From IMG/VR virus record IMGVR_UViG_3300030021_000029, positions 1-16,873 of that record: DNA of 16,873 nt; one strand, 5' to 3'. A model generated the notes under the pieces. It had not been told where the DNA came from. It did no database searches and worked only from the letters and a program-made list of their open reading frames with translations. Of the stretch, positions 6,970-16,873 are shown in pieces (within the stretch, counting starts at the first letter, position 1; the number at the start of each line of letters is the position of its first letter). Both the position numbers and the translations under genes were made by a program. Source of the stretch: a virus (Duplodnaviria; Heunggongvirae; Uroviricota; Caudoviricetes).

Positions 6970-8015
6970 TGGGAAAGAGTAAGAAAAACCGCGCTGCGGC
7001 GATGAATCACATCCAGCATAAAAGCCAGACTTCAGCCGAAGCATTCAGCTTCGGCGATCCCGTTCCTGTTCTGGACCGCCGAGAATTACTGGACTATGTG
7101 GAATGCGTACAGATGGACCGTTGGTATGAGCCGCCCGTCAGCTTTGACGGACTGGCGCGCACCTTCCGCGCCGCCGTGCATCACAGTTCCCCGATTGCAG
7201 TAAAGTGCAACATTCTGACCAGTACCTATATCCCTCATCCGCTGCTCAGCCAGCAGGCTTTTTCGCGTTTTGTGCAGGACTATCTGGTATTTGGTAACGC
7301 CTACCTGGAGAAACGCACGAACCGCTTCGGTGAAGTTATCGCCCTTGAACCGACCCTGGCAAAATACACCCGACGCGGATTAGACCTGGATACCTACTGG
7401 TTTGTGCAATACGGCATGACTACGCAGCCGTATCAGTTCACGAAAGGCAGCATTTTTCATCTGATGGAACCGGACATCAACCAGGAGATCTACGGCCTGC
7501 CCGGTTATCTTTCTGCCATTCCGTCAGCCCTGCTCAACGAGTCCGCCACGCTGTTCCGCCGCAAGTATTACATTAACGGCAGTCATGCAGGCTTCATCAT
7601 GTACATGACCGATGCAGCGCAGAACCAGGAGGATGTGAACAACCTCCGCAATGCGATGAAAAGCGCCAAAGGTCCTGGTAACTTCCGTAACCTGTTTATG
7701 TACTCGCCTAACGGTAAAAAGGACGGGCTTCAGATTATCCCGTTGTCAGAAGTGGCGGCGAAGGATGAGTTCCTGAATATCAAGAACGTGAGCCGGGACG
7801 ACATGATGGCGGCGCATCGTGTGCCGCCACAAATGATGGGGATAATGCCTAATAATGTCGGGGGGTTTGGGGATGTAGAAAAGGCAAGCCGTGTCTTTGT
7901 CCGCAACGAGTTGATACCTCTGCAGAAACGCCTACAGGAACTTAACAACTGGCTGGGCGATGAAGTTATACGTTTCGAGCCGTACACTTTAGATATTCAG
8001 AATGAAAAGAAATAA
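6969..8015 (+). CDS. Q: Portal protein gpQ-like
   Basis: 348 aa from ATG at 6969 (the track's 6966 start is TTG); directly downstream of terminase. Confidence 0.9.
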   Translation: MGKSKKNRAAAMNHIQHKSQTSAEAFSFGDPVPVLDRRELLDYVECVQMDRWYEPPVSFDGLARTFRAAVHHSSPIAVKCNILTSTYIPHPLLSQQAFSRFVQDYLVFGNAYLEKRTNRFGEVIALEPTLAKYTRRGLDLDTYWFVQYGMTTQPYQFTKGSIFHLMEPDINQEIYGLPGYLSAIPSALLNESATLFRRKYYINGSHAGFIMYMTDAAQNQEDVNNLRNAMKSAKGPGNFRNLFMYSPNGKKDGLQIIPLSEVAAKDEFLNIKNVSRDDMMAAHRVPPQMMGIMPNNVGGFGDVEKASRVFVRNELIPLQKRLQELNNWLGDEVIRFEPYTLDIQNEKK

Positions 8016-8043
8016 AAGTTAGCGAATAAAAATCATTAGCATA

Positions 8044-8062
8044 GGCCGCAAACTGAGCGGCC
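8044..8062. terminator. Bidirectional stem-loop terminator between convergent Q and the 89-aa gene
   Basis: GGCCGC-aaactga-GCGGCC hairpin, T-rich on the plus side (TTATTCATT) and U-rich on the minus side. Confidence 0.5.
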
Positions 8063-8069
8063 TTATTCA

Positions 8070-8339
8070 TTACCAATTTCTTTTTTCGGAGTTTAGCCAA
8101 TCACCGCATGGATAATATCTTGACGCCCATTCACCTTGTAAACGAGCTACAAACAGAATATCGTTACTATCGACCCTGGCTTGGAGTCCGTCACGCAGTT
8201 GAGTTGCGGTCAGCGTTGTATCTACTAACCAAAATGATTCAAGATATTTACAGTATGTAAATTGCTTTAGATAGTCAAAAACTTCATCGTAGTTTCTTCC
8301 CGGAGCCTTCAAGTCATAGGTTATACAATAAATAGCCAT
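8070..8339 (-). CDS. Hypothetical 89-aa protein, second gene of AT-rich two-gene cassette
   Basis: ATG at 8339, 3 nt after the upstream gene's TAG with GGAG inside that gene's 3' end (translational coupling); clearly AT-rich versus flanking phage genes; no family recognised. Confidence 0.55.
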   Translation of the reverse strand: MAIYCITYDLKAPGRNYDEVFDYLKQFTYCKYLESFWLVDTTLTATQLRDGLQARVDSNDILFVARLQGEWASRYYPCGDWLNSEKRNW

Positions 8340-8342
8340 TCT

Positions 8343-8525
8343 CTAAGCTCCGCATTTTTTATCATTTGGGGAACATCTTAACCTGCGACATTTGCGGCAA
8401 TACGATTGAGGGATCAGCCGCTCTCCTTCCATAGTTCTAAAACCAAACACTTCTTCAATTTTGTTCAAATCACCACTTGCAATAACCCCACAGCAGGGGC
8501 AGACAGCCTCAATTTGAAATGCCAT
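8343..8525 (-). CDS. Hypothetical small zinc-ribbon protein, first gene of AT-rich cassette
   Basis: Track ORF 8343..8588 starts at a TTG; ATG at 8525 has GGAG 8 nt upstream (alternative ATG at 8537). Cys pattern CPCC...(about 30 aa)...CRKC suggests a four-Cys zinc ribbon. Confidence 0.5.
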   Translation of the reverse strand: MAFQIEAVCPCCGVIASGDLNKIEEVFGFRTMEGERLIPQSYCRKCRRLRCSPNDKKCGA

Positions 8526-8624
8526 GTCTATCTCCATTCCACATGTTGAATGTAGGGTAATACTTCCTTTCAAGCAAAAATGAGACAAGGATCTTGAAAC
8601 CTAATTTAAACTTGCTTGCGCGCG

Positions 8625-8643
8625 CTCGTATCCCCGCCACGCC
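8625..8643. other. Candidate cos (cohesive end) site
   Basis: Reverse complement reads GGCGTGGCGGGGATACGAG; the first 13 nt equal the 186 cohesive-end sequence as I recall it (GGCGTGGCGGGGAAAGCAT). Located between replication gene A and portal Q, where cos lies in P2/186. Confidence 0.5.
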
Positions 8644-8685
8644 TGCCCGCTTTATGTAGTGGTTTTCATGCACCTGCATGATCTA

Positions 8686-8712
8686 CGCAAAAGCCCGCCA
8701 GTTCTGGCGGGC
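8686..8712 (-). terminator. Rho-independent terminator for the LexA-regulated DinI-like operon
   Basis: GCCCGCCAG-tt-CTGGCGGGC perfect inverted repeat, followed on the minus strand by TTTTGCG. Confidence 0.45.
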
Positions 8713-8847
8713 CTTAGCAAAAACGATCCTCAAACGATCATGCGATCTCATGCGGCATAGACATGCACTACAGAGCTAACGCCTCGCAAGGGCTCGTTGT
8801 TCAACCTTGCTGACGCCAGAAGCAAGTTCAGACGCCAGCAACGTTTC

Positions 8848-9081
8848 TTAATGCAGCCAGCTGTCGTCTTCCCACACCTTCTGCATAATTTTCATCACTT
8901 GTTTTCTTTCTTCGTCCAGTTGCAGTCCGGTTAGTTCCACCCCGTTAGAGCTACCTTTGCGAATGCGAATTACCGTTTTGGGATACAGGGGGCGCAGATT
9001 GCGGTAAAGCTCGGATTCAAGGGCGTCCAGGGTAGACTGGCTAATCTTCTGCTCTTTATCGATCATTATTTCAATGCGCAT
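8848..9081 (-). CDS. DinI-family protein
   Basis: 77 aa from ATG at 9081 (GAGGTG SD); MRIEIMIDKEQ...ALESEL...KIMQKVWEDDSWLH resembles E. coli DinI in length and pattern. Confidence 0.8.
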   Translation of the reverse strand: MRIEIMIDKEQKISQSTLDALESELYRNLRPLYPKTVIRIRKGSSNGVELTGLQLDEERKQVMKIMQKVWEDDSWLH

Positions 9082-9091
9082 AAAAGTCACC

Positions 9092-9280
9092 TCAGCTGAT
9101 GACATCCATTGAGCGGTTGTATTCGTGGGTTCTGATTTTTGCCATGAGTTCATCAGTCAATTCAGAAACCCACTGCAGAGCCAGCCCCTTCTCTTCATCA
9201 CTACACTCACTAGCCGCTACAAGCTTAAGAAAAAAATCAATGCGCTGGAGCTTCAAAGACTCCAAAAAATAGTCCTGCAT
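9092..9280 (-). CDS. Small hypothetical protein, first gene of SOS operon (possible Tum-like antirepressor)
   Basis: 62 aa from ATG at 9280 with strong AGGAGG SD; LexA boxes just upstream; function inferred only from the 186 tum locus position. Confidence 0.55.
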   Translation of the reverse strand: MQDYFLESLKLQRIDFFLKLVAASECSDEEKGLALQWVSELTDELMAKIRTHEYNRSMDVIS

Positions 9281-9307
9281 CTTTCCTCCTATGACACCAC
9301 ACGCAAT

Positions 9308-9341
9308 ACTGTATGTATAACCACTGTTTATATTTACAGTA
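9308..9341. promoter_or_regulatory. Tandem overlapping LexA (SOS) boxes in promoter of the DinI-like operon
   Basis: taCTGtatgtataacCAC (9307..9324, one mismatch to CTG-N10-CAG) overlapping aCTGtttatatttaCAGta (9323..9341); minus-strand -35 TTTACA and -10 TATACT candidates are adjacent. Confidence 0.65.
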
Positions 9342-9433
9342 TATAATAATCTTACTGATGTAAAACGTTTTTTTACGTTCATCAGCCTGATATGCCAGGT
9401 ATTATTAAGAGCACGAATTGTTAACCCGCGTAA

Positions 9434-11848
9434 TTAATACAGGTTCCGCCACTGATCATCTTCCTGCAAACGCTGGTTCCGATAGAAGATACGCAGGCCT
9501 GCTCCTGACGGAATACTGCCGCCGCGAAGGAGTAAATCGACCTCTTTCTCGCTGCCATCAAATCCTCTGGACTTCAGCTCATACACGAGCTGCAGTCGCT
9601 GATGGTCTGTAATTCGCTGTTTGTAGTCTTTACGCCGTTTCGGTTTCACCAGGCGTAACCTTGCTGCCAGTTCCCGGCGCTCTTTATTGCTCATACTGTG
9701 CAGGTAATCGTGCAACTCCTTGTCATCCATGCTGGTAATGTCCGTTCTGGGGTCCCCATCAGCTGATTTATCTTTCTCCTGTTGGTTCAAATTTTCAGCA
9801 AGGGGACAGTTATTGCCACGAGTCCAAGGGGCGCAAGCGCCCTGGTCGGCTGCCGCCTCCTGAACGTCAACGGCTTTACGAACCATTTTCCACTTCACTG
9901 CATGAGTGCAGATCTTGCCCTCTGCAATGGGTGACCAGATGCCATAAATACGAATGCCGTGATCGCCATAGGCGGTCGGCTCTTCGTTGATTTCATAAGC
10001 GGTTCTGATGAGGTGATATTTACGGGGAACCAGTACGCCGCCCTGCTTCATGATGTAGGTGGCAAAACAACCAGCATCAGCAGCAGCCAGAATGGCATCA
10101 AGACGCGGGTTATCCAGTACCGGCGCACCTGCTTTTTTGTCACCCTGTTGCCTTGCCGCCTGACCAGCCAGCAAGCGAAGTTCACGGTAAGCCTGACGCC
10201 CCGGAATACCAAAGAAGCGGAATTGCTGAACACGATGCAGAGACGCCCAGGCATTCACGTATTCAGCGTTATCACGCAGAGATTTACCCGTTTCCTTGCT
10301 GATCTCGCCAGCCAGACCACGCCCGTCAATGTTCTTACTGATATATTTCGCGATGTAGCTTGTCGGCGTTCCTTTGCGCGGGTTAATCAACTCAGACTTA
10401 AAGCGCGGCCCAGTGTTATTGCCCAGCTCCTCGCGGTCTTCACGGATGGCAAACTTACGCAGTAATGCAGTGATGGCACGGCGGTCTTTTTTGCGCATGA
10501 AACACAACAGGTGCCAGTGAACTGTGCCATCATGATGCGGCTCAGCCACCCGCACGCCATACCAGCGCAACCCAGCTTTGTGCATCGCCTTACGAAATGC
10601 AGCAAACATGCCGACCAGATAATCGCTGCTTTGTCTTACCGTCGCGTTTGTCCAGGTCGGGTTTGGTCTGCCGTTATTTAGCGTGGAATGGAAACGCGAC
10701 GGACAGGTGATAGTGTAGAAAACGGCGCAGTCACCGCGCATTTCCGCGATAAGCTCCAGACCTTTAACACAGGCCATCATCTCATTGCGGCGATGCGCAG
10801 GGTTGCTGCTGCTGGCGTTTACCACATCCTCCATGTCCAGCGTGTCGCCGTCTTCGTTCACCAGTTCATGAGAACGGAAAAACTCCAGCGACTTACGGCG
10901 CTGCTCACGTTTATGCATCACGGCTTCATAGCTGACATAAGGAGATGCTTTTTTGCTGACCAGGCAAACAGCGCGCAACTGCTCTTCCCGCCATTCGCAA
11001 CGCATCTTCCATAATTTCCGATACCACCAGTCGGCGCACAACATACGCGCCAGCGAACCCGGAATGAGTTCATAGGGCACGGGTTTACGGCGGTTTCTTT
11101 TCCGACGGAGTTGCTCAAACGCAGGTGGGATGACATCCAGACGCAGGGTTTCCGCTGCCACCTTTTCCCATGTCTTGCGGATTTCTTCTGGCTTAACGTC
11201 ATCGGTGGCATACAAATCACCACAAGCTGCATCAAGGCACATACTCATATGCGCAGCTACCAGGGTGGACAGGCGTTTCACCTGATCCTGACTCATTTCA
11301 GGCAGGATCAGCAGGCCGTCCAGCCCTTCATGGCTTGCCATAAAGCGAAAAGATGCAGATAGCTGACTGTCGCGTACATGCTCCAGTCGTTCCAGACATG
11401 GCTTAATCGTCTCACGTAAATAGCGGGAATAAGCCTTTGGCCTGCCCAGGCTGCTGAAGTATTCAATACGTTGCATCAGCGGCTTGCTGATATGGGAAGG
11501 CTGGGCGTTGACGTCCGCCAGAATGACCATGTCTGAATTAAAACGCTGCTGCTCATGCGCCAGCTTTGCCCGGCTAATGAGCTTATCCTGCTCCATTTCG
11601 CGCTGGACAGGATCACGTGATTCATTAAAGAAATAACGCTCCCAGACCTGATCACTCAGTGCCTCGCGGCGCAACTGTTCCTGTTCGTTATCGGCAGCGT
11701 ACAGAGTGATCAGGTTTGAAAGCGTAGAAACCGGCGCAACTTCCGCCGGGTCCAGATAAGGGTTAATGGCCTTTTTCGGGCTGTTCCATGAGAACGCTGC
11801 GGCAGCCTCGTTAAAGCCGCAGCAGTTGTTCATATCGGCATGACTCAT
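9434..11848 (-). CDS. A: Replication initiation protein gpA (rolling-circle HUH endonuclease)
   Basis: 804 aa; HUH-like motif (VHWHLL) and tyrosine pair ([12 protein letters not shown]) typical of phiX174/P2 A-type initiators. Confidence 0.9.
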
Positions 11849-13568: not shown

Positions 13569-13590
13569 AATTCATATCCCCAAAACGCAA

Positions 13591-13815
13591 CTATCGTTCT
13601 TTGTCCTTACGGTAACGTTCAAGAGGAGATACATTTTTTCGTATCGTCTCTTTAACCTGCTCTCCCCGTAAAAACGTCCCATCCTTTAGCGTGAAAAAGT
13701 AACTGCCATCGCCCGACAACGACGGATAACAACAGAGCAAATCATCTTCAGGTACTGAATAACTCTCCCCTCTGTAACGAAACTGATAAACCACTTCACT
13801 TTCCGCTGCATACAT
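13591..13815 (-). CDS. Hypothetical early protein (74 aa)
   Basis: ATG at 13815, GGAG upstream; protein-like composition; overlaps next ORF in a different frame. Confidence 0.5.
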   Translation of the reverse strand: MYAAESEVVYQFRYRGESYSVPEDDLLCCYPSLSGDGSYFFTLKDGTFLRGEQVKETIRKNVSPLERYRKDKER

Positions 13816-13982
13816 TTTGACTTTCTCCGTTTCCTCGTGGTCAATTCAGACAACAATTCATCTTGTGAATGACATGGATGCCAGCGTTTTCCATCCTCAC
13901 CCATGATCCAGCCGTGACCGTAGTGCATTGCCGGACTTTGCTTTACCAGCAGCGATGCAAATGATGGTTCTTTCGTCAGCAT
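13686..13982 (-). CDS. Hypothetical early protein, extent uncertain
   Basis: ATG at 13982 with GAGGTG SD just after cII; its 3' 130 nt overlap ORF 13591..13815 out of frame and translate to low-quality sequence. Confidence 0.3.
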   Translation of the reverse strand: MLTKEPSFASLLVKQSPAMHYGHGWIMGEDGKRWHPCHSQDELLSELTTRKRRKSKCMQRKVKWFISFVTEGRVIQYLKMICSVVIRRCRAMAVTFSR

Positions 13983-14878: not shown

Positions 14879-15448
14879 ATGAATTTGGAGAAAGGCGGAC
14901 GAGGCGCTATAGAGCGCATGGTAGAAGCTTATGGATTCAAGACTCGACAGGCGTTGTGCGATCATTTAGGAATCTCTAAAAGTACACTCGCCACACGCTA
15001 CATGCGTGACTCATTCCCAGCAGAATGGGTAATCCAGTGCGCCCTTGAAACAGGCACCTCGCTTAATTGGCTCACAACCGGGCATGGTTCAAAGCAAACT
15101 TCAGGTAATACAAATACTATGGAAGTTGCTAAATATGTATTATCTGATGGTGCCTTGCGTGAAGACGGTTTTTATATTTTTGATAAGGGATTTCTACCCT
15201 CTACGTTTAAAAAACCTTTTGTCATCACAGATAACAATTCTGAATTTATTTGTGATAAAGAATTTGATGATATACGTGATGGTAAATGGGTAATAAGTAT
15301 TGATGGCGAAATAACAATCCGCGACATTACTCGTTTACCCGGTGGAAGAATCTTCGTTGAAGGTGGAAACAGAGCCTTCGAGTGCAAGATAGAAGATGTT
15401 GAAATAATTGGAAAAATTATAAGTTTAACAATTAAGTACGTTAGGTAA
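14879..15448 (+). CDS. cI: CI-like immunity repressor (186 type, HTH N-terminal domain)
   Basis: 189 aa from ATG at 14879 (GGAG SD; the track's 14873 start is GTG); HTH (TRQALCDHLGISKSTLATRYM); size fits 186 CI (about 192 aa), not P2 C (99 aa). Confidence 0.75.
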   Translation: MNLEKGGRGAIERMVEAYGFKTRQALCDHLGISKSTLATRYMRDSFPAEWVIQCALETGTSLNWLTTGHGSKQTSGNTNTMEVAKYVLSDGALREDGFYIFDKGFLPSTFKKPFVITDNNSEFICDKEFDDIRDGKWVISIDGEITIRDITRLPGGRIFVEGGNRAFECKIEDVEIIGKIISLTIKYVR

Positions 15449-15463
15449 TACCGGGAGGAAACT

Positions 15464-15655
15464 ATGCTTGGTAAGGTATTTTTTGTGGTTTTATCATGCT
15501 CTTTGTTATTAAACCCACTAACTACCTATGCTAAAAATTATCCTTGTTCTGGGAAAAAAGGAGGTGTCTCTCACTGTACCTCCGATGGAAAGTTCGTTTG
15601 CAATGATGGAACTATTAGTAAATCAAAAAAAATCTGTACTAAAAACTCGCGATAA
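15464..15655 (+). CDS. Small secreted Cys-rich protein (moron)
   Basis: 63 aa; strong GGGAGGA SD; N-terminal signal peptide ([19 protein letters not shown]), mature about 40 aa with 4 Cys and many Lys; AT-rich. Confidence 0.55.
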
Positions 15656-15788: not shown

Positions 15789-15817
15789 TTGACACTGGTT
15801 ATACATACAGTAAAAAT
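15789..15817 (+). promoter_or_regulatory. Candidate LexA-repressed promoter upstream of int
   Basis: Perfect -35 TTGACA (15789..15794), 16-17 nt spacer holding a full CTG-N10-CAG LexA box (15795..15810), weak -10 (TAAAAA/AAAAAT), then GGAGG and int ATG at 15842. Confidence 0.4.
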
Positions 15818-15841
15818 GCTCTCCACTGGAGGGCATTTTTT

Positions 15842-16873
15842 ATGGCAGTACGAAAACTCACCACAGGAAAATGGCTTTGCGAATGTTACCCCGCCGGACG
15901 TAGTGGGCGTCGTGTGCGTAAACAATTCGCCACCAAAGGTGAAGCTCTGGCTTTTGAGCGTCACACGATGGAAGAAACCGAAGCAAAGCCCTGGCTGGGT
16001 GAATCAGTGGATCGTCGAACACTGAAAGACGTGGTTGAGCTATGGTTCAAACTACATGGTAAATCTCTGACAGCTGGGCAGCATGTCTATGACAAATTGC
16101 TGTTGATAGTTGACGCTCTGGGCAATCCCCTTGCAACCGATCTCACCTCTAAAATGTTTGCCCACTATCGAGATAAACGCCTAACAGGAGAGATCTACTT
16201 CAGCGAGAAATGGAAGAAAGGAGCAAGCCCGGTCACCATTAACCTGGAGCAAAGCTATCTAAGTAGTGTTTTTAGCGAACTATCCCGCCTGGGCGAATGG
16301 TCGTATCCAAACCCACTGGAGAACATGCGAAAATTCACCATCGCAGAAAAAGAGATGGCATGGCTTACCCATGAGCAGATTGTTGAACTGCTGGCTGATT
16401 GCAAACGTCAGGACCCAATTCTGGCTCTGGTAGTCAAAATATGCTTAAGCACAGGCGCACGCTGGCGAGAAGCCGTAAATCTTACCCGCTCACAGGTGAC
16501 CAAATACCGAATTACCTTTGTAAGAACGAAGGGGAAGAAAAACAGAAGCATCCCTATCAGTAAAGAGCTTTACGAAGAGATCATGGCGCTTGATGGGTTC
16601 AATTTCTTTACAGACTGCTATTTTCAATTTTTATCCGTGATGGAAAAAACGTCTATCGTGCTCCCTCGCGGTCAACTGACACACGTTCTGCGCCATACGT
16701 TTGCGGCGCACTTCATGATGTCGGGTGGAAATATCCTGGCCTTACAAAAAATTCTCGGGCATCACGATATAAAAATGACTATGCGTTACGCACATCTGGC
16801 ACCGGATCACCTGGAAACTGCATTACGGTTTAATCCGCTGGCAACACTACCAACATCAATAGCAAGTTTTTGA
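15842..16873 (+). CDS. int: Tyrosine integrase (P2/186 family)
   Basis: 343 aa from ATG at 15842 (MAVRKLTTGKWLCECYPAGRSGRRVRKQF); C-terminal LRHTFAAH...HHDIKMTMRYAHL recombinase motifs; stop is the last codon in the window. Confidence 0.85.
   Translation: MAVRKLTTGKWLCECYPAGRSGRRVRKQFATKGEALAFERHTMEETEAKPWLGESVDRRTLKDVVELWFKLHGKSLTAGQHVYDKLLLIVDALGNPLATDLTSKMFAHYRDKRLTGEIYFSEKWKKGASPVTINLEQSYLSSVFSELSRLGEWSYPNPLENMRKFTIAEKEMAWLTHEQIVELLADCKRQDPILALVVKICLSTGARWREAVNLTRSQVTKYRITFVRTKGKKNRSIPISKELYEEIMALDGFNFFTDCYFQFLSVMEKTSIVLPRGQLTHVLRHTFAAHFMMSGGNILALQKILGHHDIKMTMRYAHLAPDHLETALRFNPLATLPTSIASF

Follow-up and report, generated by a model that had tools for sequence, protein, structure and literature searches.

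A probable SOS induction operon, tumA-tumB, in a P2-like prophage of the Fels-2/DuoHS type

Genes and transcript end of the tum region

The DNA analyzed here, a stretch of 16,873 nucleotides that we call the window, is a P2/186-like (Peduoviridae) prophage. Its minus strand carries the replication gene A (9434-11848, 804 aa), then the tum region, a cos-like site and two small cargo ORFs, and beyond the cargo ORFs the portal and terminase genes lie on the opposite strand. The immunity region is found further along, with cII, an apl-like gene, cI (14879-15448) and int (from 15842). The tum operon thus occupies the same position as in phage 186, between gene A and cos. A prophage of E. coli HS is about 97% identical to the window over almost its whole length, the stretches without a match being 7884-8849 and 13569-13853. 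Of 5426 complete E. coli genomes, 1125 contain the 634-bp locus, BL21(DE3) and E2348/69 among them, and it is also found in 56 phage records. Comparisons across species use a set of 33 related loci, which was found from the single TumA protein and consists of TumA relatives of at least 71% identity.

The upstream gene of the operon, tumA (9092-9280, minus strand), encodes a 62-aa protein. The first-pass annotation had noted an ORF of this size preceded by an AGGAGG Shine-Dalgarno sequence, and both are present: the hexamer is read at 9285-9290 on the same strand, four bases upstream of the ATG, and AGGAGG or GGAGGG is kept in nearly all of the 33 loci. The conserved start is the ATG at 9280, not that of the longer ORFs drawn by gene callers. 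The dN/dS ratio of tumA is 0.07 in frame, compared to 1.3-1.9 off frame (30 species), and the in-frame value identifies the 62-aa ORF as a translated gene under selection. Public predictions often extend this gene to 84-101 aa by using upstream starts beyond the LexA boxes (window 9092-9382). Its product is named "hypothetical protein" in RefSeq and "levan regulatory protein" in some records.

TumA is nearly identical (61 of 62 residues) to both Fels-2 STM2728 and E. coli HS ECHS_RS04495. It belongs to phrog_698 (E 3.6e-38) and also matches phrog_8554 and phrog_1993, two families that match the N-terminus of 186 Tum. Reciprocally, residues 7-44 of 186 Tum match phrog_698 with an E-value of 2.7e-5, and a profile built from 28 diverse family members aligns with 186 Tum from residues 5-44 to residues 5-44 (hhalign 94.5%, E 7.6e-8). 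This homology rests on profile methods, as pairwise BLASTP between the 62-aa protein and 186 Tum finds no similarity. Searches of Pfam and NCBIfam returned no family for the protein, and no relative of solved structure was found. AlphaFold2 predicts a two-helix hairpin in which helices 2-23 and 28-61 are joined at a conserved cysteine (pLDDT 91.6). The family is small, with 66 clusters at 50% identity, and its members are almost all 50-100 aa long and therefore free-standing. Because the 62-aa protein had been found as a gene separate from the DinI homolog, it had been suggested to represent a distinct antirepressor design. Its homology to residues 5-44 of 186 Tum takes away this novelty, and we regard it as a homolog of the N-terminal part of that protein.

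The neighboring gene, tumB (8848-9081, minus strand), encodes a 77-aa protein of the DinI family (Pfam PF06183, E 6.6e-23), in agreement with the DinI-like ORF that had been placed 10 nt downstream. Its start lies 10 nt past the tumA stop, which is overlapped by a GAGGTG sequence. Over residues 71-145 of 186 Tum, TumB shows 41% identity, and its match to E. coli DinI (PDB 1ghh) has an E-value of 2.7e-6.

Directly after tumB, a stable hairpin is formed at 8803-8845 on the minus strand (dG -23.5 kcal/mol, z -4.4). The first-pass annotation had read it as a strong hairpin terminator. The hairpin itself is confirmed, but it has no U-tract, its tail being GGUUGAACA, and our terminator scan did not call it, so it is not a canonical terminator. 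Possible functions are partial termination or RNA stability, or it could be an element of a cargo junction. By eye, the hairpin and the block 3' of it (8770-8845, minus strand; GGTTGAACAAC...GCGAGGC.TTAG) resemble the sequence after PSP3 tumB (L004, 5555-5640), and the stems of the two hairpins appear to carry compensatory changes. The block 8770-8845 is missing from the E. coli HS prophage.

A canonical intrinsic terminator, probably that of the operon, lies about 130 nt beyond the tumB hairpin at about 8686-8717 on the minus strand (GGCCCGCCAG-loop-CTGGCGGGC followed by UUUU; dG -23.4 kcal/mol, z -3.9). It falls within a 151-bp block common to the window and the E. coli HS prophage. About 40 nt further on is a cos-like cohesive-end site (GGCGTGGCGGGGATACGAG, 8625-8643, minus strand), the first 13 nt of which are identical to the annotated cos of 186. 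The site was found by reading and alignment; a search for the P2 cos pattern found nothing. Its position means that no other transcription unit separates the tum operon from the right end of the packaged genome. A search of Rfam detected no RNA family in 8000-9500.

The two small cargo ORFs between cos and the portal gene (8070-8588, minus strand) are absent from the E. coli HS prophage. One of them encodes an 89-aa protein with weak Cas2-like matches in PADLOC (E 5e-4). The product of the other, of 60-81 aa, is zinc-ribbon-like, with a CxxC...CxxC arrangement, and has no family match.

LexA boxes at the tum promoter and upstream of int

We place the tum promoter at TTTACA (-35, 9359-9364) and TACTGT (-10, 9336-9341), both on the minus strand and 17 nt apart, because the two hexamers are conserved and reproduce the layout of the 186 p95 promoter, in which the -10 is the same hexamer. 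Among 22 distinct species sequences, the block GTTTTACA is near-invariant at a fixed distance, 17 nt before TACTGT. The putative -10 is part of a near-consensus LexA box, box 1 (TACTGTAAATATAAACAGTG, 9322-9341, minus strand), just as a LexA box overlaps the -10 of the annotated p95 promoter. Box 1 departs from the 20-nt LexA consensus at three positions. The window has no other such site, and shuffling yielded none (0 of 200 shuffles).

A second candidate box, box 2 (CAGTGGTTATACATACAGTA, 9307-9326, minus strand), is offset from the first by 15 nt and overlaps it by 5 nt. The two had been described from the sequence as tandem CTG-N10-CAG boxes at 9307-9341. Box 1 and the overlap are as described, but box 2 reads GTG-N10-CAG (CTG-N10-CAC on the plus strand), so that one of its half-sites is degenerate and an exact CTG-N10-CAG search of the window misses it. 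As we read the sequence, the CTG is missing because the 5-nt overlap puts the G of the box 1 CAG at the position of its C. A G at this normally invariant position of the left half counts against LexA binding there. We also scored the window with a heterology index, which is rough and does not reproduce published values, and was therefore used for ranking alone. The three best 20-mers in the window are box 1 (4.3-4.6), a site near int (4.5) and box 2 (8.1); the next-best scores 13.8, and the best of 30 shuffles 9.2. Box 2 is beyond chance.

Of the 33 species loci (the window not counted), 21 retain a second box exactly 15 nt further on, while the Pantoea, Erwinia and Tatumella loci have a single box. 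In the 22 distinct sequences with a double box, column identity averages 0.92 in box 1 and 0.91 in the part that belongs to box 2 only. It is 0.57 in the next 25 nt and 0.72 upstream. The pattern is consistent with LexA occupying both boxes.

Matches to the 55-nt operator region were also found in about 800 plasmids, with 83-86% identity across 42 nt. In the plasmid matches that we examined, the similarity lies about 40 nt upstream of the colicin E1 gene (cea) and of a klebicin gene. Like the phage operator, the ColE1 cea and klebicin operators consist of two 20-nt boxes that are offset by 15 nt and share CAGTG, and the architecture common to phage and colicin operators can be written TA(C/G)CTGT-N8-(A/C)CAGTGGTTATAT(G/A)TACAGTATT. 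The counterpart of box 2 in the alignment is the promoter-proximal box of the cea and klebicin operators, and box 2 of Fels-2 is identical to the proximal box of ColE1. Unlike the phage operator, the plasmid versions drive bacteriocin genes on Col plasmids, and they have an upstream promoter and products unrelated to those of the phage. Colicin double boxes are reported to be bound by two LexA dimers and to give very low basal expression, and the published heterology indices of the ColE1 boxes are 7.48 and 11.06 (PMC2994835).

Could box 1 be the only working LexA operator? Box 2 would then be conserved for another reason, as an initially transcribed region or as the site of a different regulator, and the operon would be a single-box SOS gene like 186 tum. 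The incomplete half-site of box 2 fits such a reading, as does the presence of just one box in 186, PSP3 and the Pantoea/Erwinia relatives; moreover, a 5-nt overlap would force two LexA dimers to share CAGTG. Against this, the 35-nt element can be aligned position by position with its counterparts at ColE1 cea and klebicin, where two bound LexA dimers have been reported. The columns of box 2 are as conserved as those of box 1, whereas the leader that follows is not, and upstream of int there is a 21-mer that is nearly the same and has its CTG intact. We therefore consider a single working box unlikely and favor a double operator of the colicin style, which by analogy with the colicin genes would most likely provide tight repression and late induction, suiting a lethal function.

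The 21-mer upstream of int (15792-15812) is an inverted near-copy of box 2, matching it at 20 of 21 positions, and contains a LexA box with an intact CTG (CACTGGTTATACATACAGTA, 15793-15812, plus strand). This box fills the 17-nt spacer of TTGACA-17-AAAAAT, the best promoter-like site in the region (15789-15842). It is followed by a terminator-like hairpin at 15812-15840 (dG -19.2 kcal/mol, z -5.1), the 3' arm of which holds the GGAGG that precedes the int ATG. Phages 813R9, KP12 and 4LV2017 have kept all three elements (box, -35 and hairpin), with compensatory changes in the hairpin, and the elements are likewise conserved in the related loci L012, L021 and L044. The arrangement occurs only with the int allele of the window (at least 92% identity), which cargo sets apart from cI. 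The 23 remaining loci with an int have this gene close after cI and lack the box.

A transcript that begins about 7 nt past this -10 would not contain the 5' arm of the hairpin. It would consequently be expected to escape termination and to expose the ribosome-binding site, and the site may thus be a promoter for int that is under SOS control and avoids the terminator. Our literature search found no description of an SOS-controlled int promoter of such design. The nearest parallel is the SOS control of integron integrases.

The usual cI-int layout is interrupted in the window by a moron, a 63-aa ORF at 15464-15655 (plus strand) that has a signal-peptide-like N-terminus, several cysteines and no family match. 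The same ORF is present in the E. coli HS prophage.

The proposed switch and its repressor target

Taken together, the features described above are very probably those of a tumA-tumB operon for SOS induction in a P2-like prophage of the Fels-2/DuoHS type. As long as the cell is undamaged, LexA would sit on the double overlapping operator, with box 1 over the -10 and box 2 just downstream, and keep the promoter shut. DNA damage would activate RecA and lead to self-cleavage of LexA, whereupon the operon would be transcribed and its two proteins made. TumA, a two-helix protein that corresponds to the N-terminal part of 186 Tum but stands alone, would then bind the 186-type CI repressor, which is not known to be cleaved by RecA, and block its binding to the operators. 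The lytic promoter would then fire. TumB would be made by coupled translation from its start 10 nt downstream. It is expected to be an accessory protein that probably tunes the SOS signal via RecA filaments and would not be needed for the switch.

The genetic evidence for this switch was obtained by others in the 97%-identical prophage of E. coli HS, where induction was shown to need both the 62-aa gene and a cleavable LexA. The gene deleted as "tum" from this P2-like prophage in the Phollow study (Nat Microbiol 2025) is ECHS_RS04495, a 189-bp gene immediately upstream of a DinI-like gene, and its product differs from TumA at 1 of 62 residues. After mitomycin C, neither the delta-tum strain nor a lexA(Ind-) strain showed lysis or viral foci (Phollow, Nat Microbiol 2025). 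Together with the location between gene A and cos and the LexA box over the -10, these phenotypes support the first-pass proposal that an SOS operon repressed by LexA occupies the place of 186 tum. Direct contact between TumA and CI is presumed by analogy with 186, whose Tum binds CI and prevents it from binding its operator (work cited in PMC3121763). The part assigned to TumB is likewise a prediction.

Alternatively, the DinI-like TumB could be the real inducer, acting via RecA, with the 62-aa ORF serving as a leader peptide or accessory factor. Proteins of the DinI family do bind RecA filaments, and the 186 record annotates DinI-only Tum products as modulators of SOS induction. Yet deletion of the 62-aa gene alone abolishes induction of the HS prophage, and in PSP3 it is the upstream gene that carries antirepressor activity, according to PMC3121763. 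The strong purifying selection on tumA also speaks against a subsidiary role. Furthermore, tumB is absent beside tumA in 13 of the 33 species loci, which keep tumA and its LexA box, and non-polar dinI deletions in Gifsy prophages leave induction unaffected. Because of these last two observations TumB looks dispensable or accessory, and we rate it as the inducer with very low probability. Less credible still is decay, in which a nonsense or frameshift mutation would have broken a 186-type tum into the two ORFs and left the prophage defective. Against it, each ORF has its own ribosome-binding site, and the split form is kept in Escherichia, Salmonella, Klebsiella, Citrobacter, Enterobacter, Serratia and Pantoea (dN/dS 0.07), in 1125 complete E. 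coli genomes, and in the inducible, infectious phages DuoHS and Fels-2/PSP3.

For TumA as the antirepressor, the presumed target is the 186-type immunity repressor encoded by cI (14879-15448, plus strand), which has the Pfam domains Phage_CI_repr (E 2.7e-33) and Phage_CI_C (E 2e-28). The window CI is 32% identical to 186 CI and 41% identical to Fels-2 CI. A 186-type CI was detected in 27 of the 33 related loci, and we looked for co-variation between TumA and CI in 27 sequences, namely 26 loci and the window. In this set, the median pairwise identity is 82% for TumA, 62% for the N-terminal domain of CI and 33% for its C-terminal domain. TumA showed no co-variation with either the N-terminal or the C-terminal domain (Mantel r -0.03 and -0.09, respectively, 27 sequences). 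Pairs of TumA proteins that are at least 85% identical can have CI C-terminal domains that are just 23% identical, and the partner CI diverges to 23-38% identity where TumA is conserved.

The lack of correlation implies that TumA does not track immunity type and, because it extends to both CI domains, co-variation does not locate the TumA binding site. Such a result is unexpected for a strictly cognate antirepressor-repressor pair, and a conserved target surface would explain it. The N-terminal domain of CI has about 30 nearly invariant positions, and the C-terminal domain very few. The simplest reading of these alignments is that TumA recognizes a conserved surface of CI. If so, cross-induction between heteroimmune P2-like prophages is predicted, as has been shown for the Gifsy antirepressors (PMC3121763).

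These observations can be joined with the LexA box upstream of int into a broader and tentative hypothesis, which we hold to be possible though on balance improbable: that the prophage has an SOS regulon with two nodes, a generic TumA and a LexA-controlled int promoter. At the first node, TumA may recognize a scaffold that all 186-type CI proteins conserve in their N-terminal DNA-binding domain, in which case the TumA of one prophage would induce heteroimmune P2-like prophages in the same cell. At the second, which concerns only this int allele with cargo between it and cI, a LexA-controlled promoter may start transcription inside the upstream terminator hairpin, bypassing it and freeing the ribosome-binding site of int. 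Integrase would then be made only on DNA damage.

Relation to known phage and prophage systems

The separation of the antirepressor gene from the DinI gene, read in the first-pass annotation as a possibly distinct design, has precedents. Lemire 2011 (PMC3121763), citing Bunny 2002, describes tum as split into an antirepressor gene and a DinI gene in Fels-2 and PSP3, and the GenBank record of PSP3 annotates the two as tumA ("UV induction of prophage") and tumB (DinI-like). The operon carries little weight as a discovery, its key gene having already been tested genetically. A very common family of P2-like prophages uses it as its standard switch for induction, and about one fifth of complete E. 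coli genomes contain it. The value of the analysis for annotation is that the 62-aa gene should be named TumA (antirepressor) and its neighbor TumB.

Among the systems compared, the Gifsy dinI-gfoA/gftA operons of Salmonella resemble the window in function: a DinI homolog under LexA control is paired with a small antirepressor that acts on a non-cleavable repressor. Unlike the window, they have dinI first and occur in lambdoid phages, and neither their antirepressors nor their repressors are of the same family as those here.

The p95 operon of 186 shares with the window a LexA-repressed promoter, with the -10 TACTGT inside the LexA box, and a position between gene A and cos. The 146-aa 186 Tum is homologous to TumA in its N-terminal part and to TumB in its C-terminal half, and it acts on a 186-type CI. 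In contrast to the window, 186 has both parts fused in one polypeptide, from which internal starts give DinI-only products; these truncated products are the ones annotated in its record as modulators of SOS induction. There is also a single LexA box in 186, and the next gene is orf97.

In PSP3, tumA and tumB are split at the same genome position behind a LexA box, as they are here. The two TumB proteins are closely similar, whereas PSP3 TumA is very divergent from that of the window (hhalign E 0.004), with only a Cys...LAL..IA.L core in common. PSP3 further differs in its single LexA box and in an intergenic gap of 3 nt.

The closest relatives are Fels-2 and the E. coli HS prophage DuoHS. STM2728 and STM2726.1 of Fels-2 match the window in genes, order, spacing and operator, but in Fels-2 tumB is followed by an orf97-like gene, and the CI is a different one (41% identical). 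The corresponding pair of DuoHS, ECHS_RS04495 and ECHS_RS04500, agrees with the window in the same four respects, and DuoHS and the window differ only in the cargo that lies between tumB/cos and the portal gene (window 7884-8849). We conclude that the operon is the already known tumA-tumB form of the 186 tum operon.
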